From IMG/VR virus record IMGVR_UViG_2713896773_000006, positions 1 to 37,546 of that record: a DNA stretch of 37,546 nt. The stretch is one strand, 5' to 3'. The notes below the pieces were generated by a model. It saw only the letters and a program-made list of their open reading frames with translations, did not search any database and was not told the DNA's origin. Shown here piece after piece: positions 30,846 to 31,227 of this stretch. Source of the stretch: a virus. Lineage: Duplodnaviria > Heunggongvirae > Uroviricota > Caudoviricetes. The position numbers and the translations under genes are program-made. Numbering within the stretch: position 1 is the first letter of the stretch; each line of letters opens with the position of its first letter.

Positions 30846-31139
30846 TTAGCTGCTGTCTTTTTTATATAGCTCCTTGAGCGTATCAAAGACAATTTTCTTA
30901 ACCATATCAGATTGTTGTTCTGCCATACGCTCTGCATCGTCAATGTAAACAGATGCAGAGCTTTGTTTAGCCAATGATTCTTCAATCGCTGCAATTATCT
31001 CTGAGTTCAGCGATCTGTTATTCATCTTCGCACGCTGCTTAATTTTCGCGTGGAGTTCATGCGGAAGTCTCAAGTGAAACTGCGCCTCATCGTATTTGCT
31101 GTACATCCTTGATGCCTCACCAGTTGGGTGGAATGGCAT
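30846..31139 (-). CDS. mnt: Mnt-like ribbon-helix-helix repressor
   Basis: ...QFHLRLPHELHAKIKQRAKMNNRSLNSEIIAAIEESL...DDAERMAEQQSDMVKKIVFDTLKELYKK parallels recalled P22 Mnt. Alternative start ATG 31106 (86 aa). Confidence 0.75.
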   Translation of the reverse strand: MPFHPTGEASRMYSKYDEAQFHLRLPHELHAKIKQRAKMNNRSLNSEIIAAIEESLAKQSSASVYIDDAERMAEQQSDMVKKIVFDTLKELYKKDSS

Positions 31140-31179
31140 CGTAACCTACTGGATAAATACTCAATAGTACCATTTCGGT

Positions 31180-31202
31180 ATGCAATCACATCATGGTTGC
31201 AT
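31180..31202. promoter_or_regulatory. inverted repeat between mnt and tailspike (candidate operator)
   Basis: ATGCAA-n11-TTGCAT in the 88-bp divergent intergenic region. Confidence 0.25.
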
Positions 31203-31227
31203 CATATCATTCGTCTGGAGCAATGAA

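Follow-up and report, generated by a model that had tools for sequence, protein, structure and literature searches.

The small gene facing the tailspike gene in this phage genome is most probably (a probability of about 0.7, judged from its sequence and that of its relatives) the mnt half of a P22-type immI module after deletion of arc and ant, that is, the "mnt-only" form of the "ant moron" found between genes 16 and 9. The window, by which we mean the whole 37,546-nt stretch of DNA that was analysed (IMG/VR record IMGVR_UViG_2713896773_000006), is an almost complete P22-like (Lederbergvirus) genome, and its segment 30700-31400 matches Shigella phage Sf101 at 98.4% identity and coliphage IME10 at 96.8%. 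The gene order is gp16 homologue, mnt, tailspike, O-acetyltransferase and integrase (Table 1). In this order mnt separates the homologues of genes 16 and 9, runs antisense to the late operon and is, as the earlier note had described it, divergent from the tailspike gene. The gp16 homologue is 73% identical to P22 gp16 over the N-terminal 190 aa, its residues 31-743 are 98.7% identical to Sf101 gp13, and 17 nt separate its stop codon from that of mnt.

By its profile matches, the ORF is a true Mnt homologue with both Mnt domains, which bears out its earlier designation as a Mnt-type repressor. Pfam Arc (PF03869) matched residues 18-60 at 1e-14, placing an N-terminal ribbon-helix-helix (RHH) domain, and Repressor_Mnt (PF11423) matched residues 68-93 at 3.3e-14, placing the C-terminal tetramerisation coiled coil. 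PDB entry 1mnt (Mnt N-terminal domain) was matched at E = 5.5e-19 over residues 17-90 and 1qey (tetramerisation domain) at 2.3e-8, and P22 Mnt used as a tblastn query against the window returned 1e-25.

The start codon was assigned from selection, from the Shine-Dalgarno sequence and from existing annotation. Selection was estimated from 100 distinct alleles from 189 related loci, and gave a pN/pS of 6.7 (pS 0.003) for codons 1-11 versus 0.17 for codons 12-97, values of limited weight since the relatives are so close (pS 0.08) that they rest on few substitutions. With this ratio and almost no "synonymous" change, the first 11 codons behave as promoter or leader DNA and not as coding sequence, and ATG 31139 overlaps the -10 element of the candidate mnt promoter, Pmnt. 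The first ATG was rejected as the start on this ratio together with the PGAP annotation of an 86-aa protein in E. coli E89. A GAGG Shine-Dalgarno sequence lies 8 nt before ATG 31106 and is common to ST64T, where Mnt is annotated from the equivalent Met; the true start is probably this second ATG. Starting there, the functional intergenic region 31107-31227 is 121 bp long, and the 88-bp spacer given previously holds only if the first ATG is used. The leader also contains an inverted repeat (31111-31140) that folds on the - (mnt) strand with z = -2.4 and is kept in ST64T, SE1 and Gally, where the inner stem is the compensatory CACTT/AAGTG; it could control mnt translation or serve as a protein binding site.

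Table 1 Features of the mnt-tailspike region and its neighbours in the window
Feature	Position	Strand	Description	Basis
gp16 (DNA-transfer/ejection protein) homologue	28597-30828	+	743 aa; final late-operon gene ahead of the mnt insert	
mnt ORF	30846-31139	-	97 codons	Pfam and PDB profile matches
mnt coding sequence from the probable true start	30846-31106	-	starts at M12 of the 97-codon ORF; 86 aa, MYSKYDEAQFHLRLP...	selection, Shine-Dalgarno, PGAP
In-frame upstream extension	31107-31139	-	MPFHPTGEASR; probably untranslated leader and promoter DNA	pN/pS 6.7
Inverted repeat in the mnt leader	31111-31140		GATGCC-n18-GGCATC, inner stem CACC/GGTG; overlaps the mnt Shine-Dalgarno	
Candidate Pmnt	31138-31165	-	-35 TTGAGT (31165-31160), 15-nt spacer, -10 TACGAT (31143-31138)	inferred by position
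Predicted Mnt operator	31166-31182		17-bp dyad AGTACCATTTCGGTATG = AGTACCAT-T-TCGGTATG	aligns base for base with the annotated P22 mnt operator
ATGCAA-n11-TTGCAT repeat	31180-31202	+	9-bp stem, 5-nt loop (AUGCAAUCA-CAUCA-UGGUUGCAU)	pairing conserved in relatives
Alternative promoter-like site towards mnt	31206-31234	-	CTGACA-17-AATGAT	consensus scan, 9/12
Tailspike Shine-Dalgarno	31217-31220	+	GGAG	sequence
Tailspike gene	31228-32940	+	570 aa, P22-type head-binding domain; start ATG 31228 (MSDITANVV)	Pfam Head_binding, 1.6e-65
Acyl_transf_3 O-acetyltransferase	32987-34180	-	next after the tailspike gene	

To locate the operator, the P22 RefSeq record, which annotates Pant, Pmnt, Oarc and the mnt operator, was used as the alignment reference, and the mnt-upstream regions of P22, eps34, UPF_BP1, ST64T, SE1, Gally, VSe13 and the window were set in one orientation. 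All share CTCAAT or CACAAT, the reverse complement of the Pmnt -35 (TTGAGA in P22), followed immediately by a 17-bp dyad. This dyad reads AGGTCCAC-G-GTGGACCT in P22, eps34 and UPF_BP1, AAGACCAC-C-GTGGTCTT in ST64T and SE1, AAGACCAC-A-GTGGTCTC in Gally and CGTACCAT-T-TAGGTATG in VSe13; in L027, an IMG/VR relative of the window, it is CGTACCGT-T-TCGGTATG. We infer that Mnt tetramers bind the corresponding site of the window, 31166-31182. The dyad alone is not rarer than chance within the window, where it is present as a single copy (scan allowing up to 2 mismatches), and its symmetry, built on a TACC/GGTA core, is below that of P22: only 4 of its 8 positions are symmetric, against 6 of 8 for the L027-type variant.

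The dyad changes together with the part of the repressor that reads it. The beta-strand of P22 Mnt contacts the operator through Arg2, His6, Asn8 and Arg10; in the window His6 is replaced by Gln and Asn8 by His (P22 numbering), and the operator sequence differs too. Three pairings were distinguished: class I, in which the beta-strand PHFNFRMP goes with operator AGGTCCACGGTGGACCT; class II, in which PQFNLRL/M (PQFNLRLP in ST64T) goes with AAGACCACnGTGGTCTT; and class III, in which AQFHLRLP/T goes with GTACC(A/G)TTT(C/A)GGTATG. The window, which pairs GTACCATTTCGGTAT with AQFHLRLP, therefore differs in class from ST64T and L, since ST64T pairs AGACCACCGTGGTCT with PQFNLRLP. The class II operator recurs with a PQFNLRM Mnt in unrelated phage backgrounds that have a full TTGACA-17-CATTAT Pant, arc and ant, which serves as an independent check on the predicted link between operator and beta-strand. 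Given the positional alignment of the dyad next to the Pmnt -35 and its co-variation with the beta-strand residues, operator binding by Mnt and self-regulation of mnt are well-supported predictions.

The earlier note had singled out another element of the spacer, the ATGCAA-n11-TTGCAT inverted repeat. The repeat is present, extends to 9-nt arms of which 8 of 9 positions are complementary, lies in the right spacer and overlaps the dyad by 3 bp, so that it could be considered as the Mnt operator or as a second one. An inverted repeat of this size is near chance by itself, and the mnt coding sequence contains a perfect 10-nt inverted repeat; the one in the spacer is accepted as real only on the ground that its pairing is preserved among relatives. 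In a set of 15 distinct leader variants, 97% of the stem cells are paired, a value matched by 14 of 500 shuffles, and the leader of Escherichia sp. E1V33 (L212), otherwise diverged, has ATTCAAT-n9-ATTGAAT with a compensatory G-C to U-A change. Conserved pairing would suit an operator as well, but the changes C7U, C11U and the U10-G20 pair (with U-A and C-G variants) keep pairing only as + strand RNA. The repeat has no sequence similarity to the dyad, and is missing from the spacers of L027, L029, L082 and VSe13 despite the same Mnt DNA-reading residues (in the IMG/VR loci, Mnt is 93-97% identical overall), whereas these spacers retain the 17-bp dyad. The proposed search for additional copies recovered the original site alone in the whole window (up to 1 mismatch). 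A role for the repeat as Mnt operator is thus highly improbable, and the regulatory site had been placed on the wrong element.

The same element has a counterpart in other tailspike leaders. P22, ST64T and Gally all conserve TCTGGAGCAA (31214-31223 in the window) ahead of gene 9. In gene-9 leaders of the P22 type, a comparable hairpin, CCGUAGC-CAC-GCUGCGG, precedes the same GGAG by about 15 nt, at the same distance from the Shine-Dalgarno sequence as the repeat, and shows co-variation to CCGCAGC/GCUGUGG and CCGCAGA/UCUGUGG. When the spacer was folded as a single sequence, the result was not significant (z = -0.75 and -0.28). The conserved pairing, the G-U changes and the analogous P22-type hairpin together point to a stem-loop, and the most likely identity of 31180-31202 is an RNA hairpin that belongs to the leader of the tailspike mRNA and is separate from the operator.

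The other components of immI were sought in the window. P22 Arc, Ant, SieA and orf59a gave no tblastn hits in the whole window (best E 0.99 for Arc and 2.4 for Ant), nor did the small "antirepressor" of VSe13. The mnt-tailspike spacer is too short for an arc ORF, nothing in the window corresponds to the Pant -35 and Oarc segment of P22, and Rfam gave no match of any kind in 30700-31400, where sar antisense RNA would also have no arc-ant junction to host it. A complete immI with arc, ant and sar is therefore not present, and the 17-nt gap to gene 16 and the absent tblastn hit speak equally against SieA; the window has mnt facing gene 9, with arc, ant and sieA all absent. The annotation of Sf101 lists no antirepressor. 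The description of mnt as an orphan was thus upheld by searches of the whole window, and an ant/arc pair elsewhere under the same operator, which would have spoken against it, was not seen, as the window has neither arc or ant nor a second operator copy. The sole antirepressor-like fold in the window is a KilA-N/P63C protein (15252-16055, +) with no Mnt operator nearby; it is encoded between the lysis and terminase genes, in a slot that is occupied by a Rha-like regulator in Sf101.

The layout recurs among relatives. The tailspike gene directly follows the operator at 109 of 113 usable class III loci and at 69 of 77 usable class II loci, with arc and ant present at 7 of 78 class II operator loci. 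For class III, neither a set of 119 loci nor a targeted pattern scan yielded an operator with intact arc/ant, and the 10 matches to a class III operator followed by an arc-like start (10-32 nt, then ATGAAAG) were all chance. At one locus, L165 (IMGVR_UViG_2713897197_000002), a truncated ant, reduced to its last 110 codons, stands between the class III operator and the tailspike gene; this remnant is the last third of ant, with 93% identity to P22 Ant residues 191-300. Read from this layout, L165 is a deletion intermediate between the full immI and the orphan state, indicating where the orphans came from.

An insert that has lost arc and ant, together with the Pant -35 and Oarc segment, might be a decaying relic, its mnt and operator being non-functional immI leftovers that are present because the deletion is recent. 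A relic or a new function were the alternatives stated for the mnt of phage L (Zaworski 2021, PMC8022706), and the P22-like phages Sf6 and HK620 do without mnt, so that the tailspike does not need it (PMC2629481). The shallow divergence of the relatives noted above is also consistent with recent deletion, and 3 of the 189 copies carry nonsense mutations. However, the gene is intact from M12 (84-88 aa) in 185 of 189 relatives (98%), the remaining copy being a fusion, and the low pN/pS of the true coding part (0.13 in the RHH part and 0.23 in the C-terminal part) stands against the 6.7 of the adjacent, non-coding-like 33 nt. The RHH domain and the operator stay linked although three mosaic forms of the C-terminal domain exist, so that this unit outlasts C-terminal domain swaps, and two specificity classes, in which operators and DNA-reading residues have changed together, have both retained the orphan layout. 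Sf101, IME10 and 231 of 5,426 complete E. coli genomes have the same junction; a search of species-representative genomes with a four-sequence alignment gave only 4 loci. Purifying selection and repressor-operator co-variation argue for a functional repressor-operator pair and a gene that is not decaying, which makes the relic put forward in the earlier note quite improbable.

Transcription of the region was examined by position and by a sigma-70 and terminator scan of 30600-31500. The candidate Pmnt corresponds in position to the annotated P22 Pmnt (TTGAGA-17-TATCAT). In the window its -10 is weak and its spacer measures 15 nt, as compared with 17 nt in the L027/VSe13 spacer type. The alternative promoter-like site does not exceed shuffles, overlaps the tailspike start and is not conserved in the other leader type; if used, it might be an alternative source of mnt transcripts, with the operator at about +17 to +33 downstream of the start. 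On the + strand the scan found no sigma-70-like promoter and nothing above shuffles, and the best rightward alignment to Pant, ATGGCA-15-TAAATA, scores 7/12 and is without the invariant last T of the -10. With no credible rightward promoter, the tailspike gene almost certainly has no promoter of its own and, like that of P22 (PMC2629481), depends for its expression on read-through of the late operon across mnt.

The junction between gene 16 and mnt carries a bidirectional GC-rich hairpin in phage L and a late-strand terminator in epsilon34, whereas the window has neither, its putative terminator after gene 16 being not significant (z = 0.02). No strong intrinsic terminator was seen in 30829-30870. 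Without a terminator, mnt transcripts may continue into gene 16 as antisense and late transcripts may pass unimpeded into mnt.

This arrangement bears on a possible re-use of Mnt to regulate the tailspike in cis, either by blocking a residual rightward promoter or by forming a roadblock to read-through, thereby setting tailspike dosage or silence in the lysogen. For P22-like phages, it has been suggested that transcription running into the tailspike gene is affected in cis (PMC2629481). The operator is 46 bp upstream of the tailspike ATG and on the only path into that gene, and in the window, which is without the strong mnt 3' terminator of L and eps34, a protein roadblock could substitute for it. 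The control of a tailspike promoter proposed earlier is nevertheless weakened by the absence of a credible one, as the Pant homologue lacks the final T of its -10, has a 15-nt spacer and has lost its -35/Oarc segment. In lambdoid phages, late transcription under antitermination usually runs through obstacles, mnt would itself be silenced by convergent late transcription, and about 12 of 80 relatives have an HNH gene between operator and tailspike. Tailspike expression is normal in P22-like phages that have no mnt. Transcription that crosses the operator may be affected in cis to some extent, but re-use of Mnt as a tailspike regulator is unlikely.

In the P22 prophage, Mnt represses ant on superinfecting genomes. 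The mnt of the orphan module would be transcribed leftwards from Pmnt in the prophage, and Mnt bound at 31166-31182 would regulate its own gene. By analogy with P22, the orphan Mnt could repress in trans the antirepressor gene of incoming relatives that have the same operator; class II has such potential targets, in the 7 of 78 loci with arc and ant. Trans-repression of an incoming ant is the most likely purpose, although speculative; since no intact arc/ant was found under a class III operator, this immunity would be without a known target for class III. It is also conceivable, though doubtful, that orphan Mnt-operator pairs are self-standing modules that continued to evolve new specificities once arc and ant were lost (at least classes II and III, the latter, to which the window belongs, then being a previously uncharacterised one) and act as pre-emptive immunity against relatives with an antirepressor or as a gate on late transcription into the tailspike gene.

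As the probable remnant of a P22-type module, the locus shares with P22 immI the protein family with both domains, the slot between genes 16 and 9, the orientation against the late operon and a Pmnt -35 abutting a 17-bp dyad operator; it differs in that arc, sar RNA, ant, sieA, orf59a and the Pant -35/Oarc segment are all missing, and in the extra inverted repeat of the mnt leader. It resembles ST64T, L, ST104, SE1 and Gally in having an orphan mnt directly facing gene 9 and in the common mnt leader, GAGG Shine-Dalgarno and Pmnt architecture. These phages, however, carry at least one extra ORF (orf62, others) and a strong bidirectional terminator after mnt, whereas mnt is the sole gene of the insert in the window and lies 17 nt from gene 16. 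The window also has a tailspike leader of another sequence type, and its spacer of 121 bp compares with 135-146 bp in ST64T, VSe13 and Gally. Sf101 gp14 and the "Arc family DNA-binding protein" of IME10 and E. coli prophages represent essentially the same locus at 97-99% identity.

The mnt-only arrangement is thus already known and is shared by ST64T, L, ST104, SE1, Gally, Sf101 and IME10. It was described in 2008 in a survey that recorded ten layouts in sixteen genomes, with ST64T, ST104 and Para1 holding only mnt and one unknown gene (Villafane 2008, PMC2629481). In the literature examined, the class III specificity and its predicted operator, the mnt-only form that has no terminator, and the evidence for selection appear to be undescribed. 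With the layout documented and the locus common in public genomes, the discovery value is small; the practical gains are a corrected annotation, a fixed start codon and a likely operator. The three repressor-operator classes form a small set of natural examples of how DNA specificity is recoded by the beta-strand residues of an RHH protein, and purifying selection on an orphan mnt sharpens the question raised by the phage L and epsilon34 papers, namely what role Mnt has without ant.

The annotation at issue is the RefSeq label of mnt in Sf101, "partition protein ATPase"; the Sf101 paper does not mention mnt. This label is a propagated mis-annotation of an 83-86-aa RHH repressor. It is attached to Mnt in NC_002371, NC_027398, NC_011976 and NC_011802, P22 included, and in PHROG 795 (phrog_795).

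Two further observations concern the tailspike leader. The P22-type hairpin (CCGTAGC-CAC-GCTGCGG as DNA) occurs in L084 (P22), L085, L086, L003 and L027, the window keeping only TCTGGAGCAA, and CUS-3 annotates this hairpin as a "boundary sequence", a term for which a literature search returned no match. Its occurrence twice in P22 and at the ant-deletion junction of L165 suggests a recombination linker or an RNA element. The HNH-endonuclease-like ORF of relatives (162-179 aa, on the mnt strand; listed for L008, L042, L043, L045, L049, L054, L058, L070, L076, L079 and L082) comes directly after the first five tailspike codons (ATGTCAGATATCACC), at a site equivalent to 31228-31242 of the window, which is without the insertion, and a new tailspike start follows the insert. 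An annotated HNH endonuclease occupies the same slot in Kapi1.
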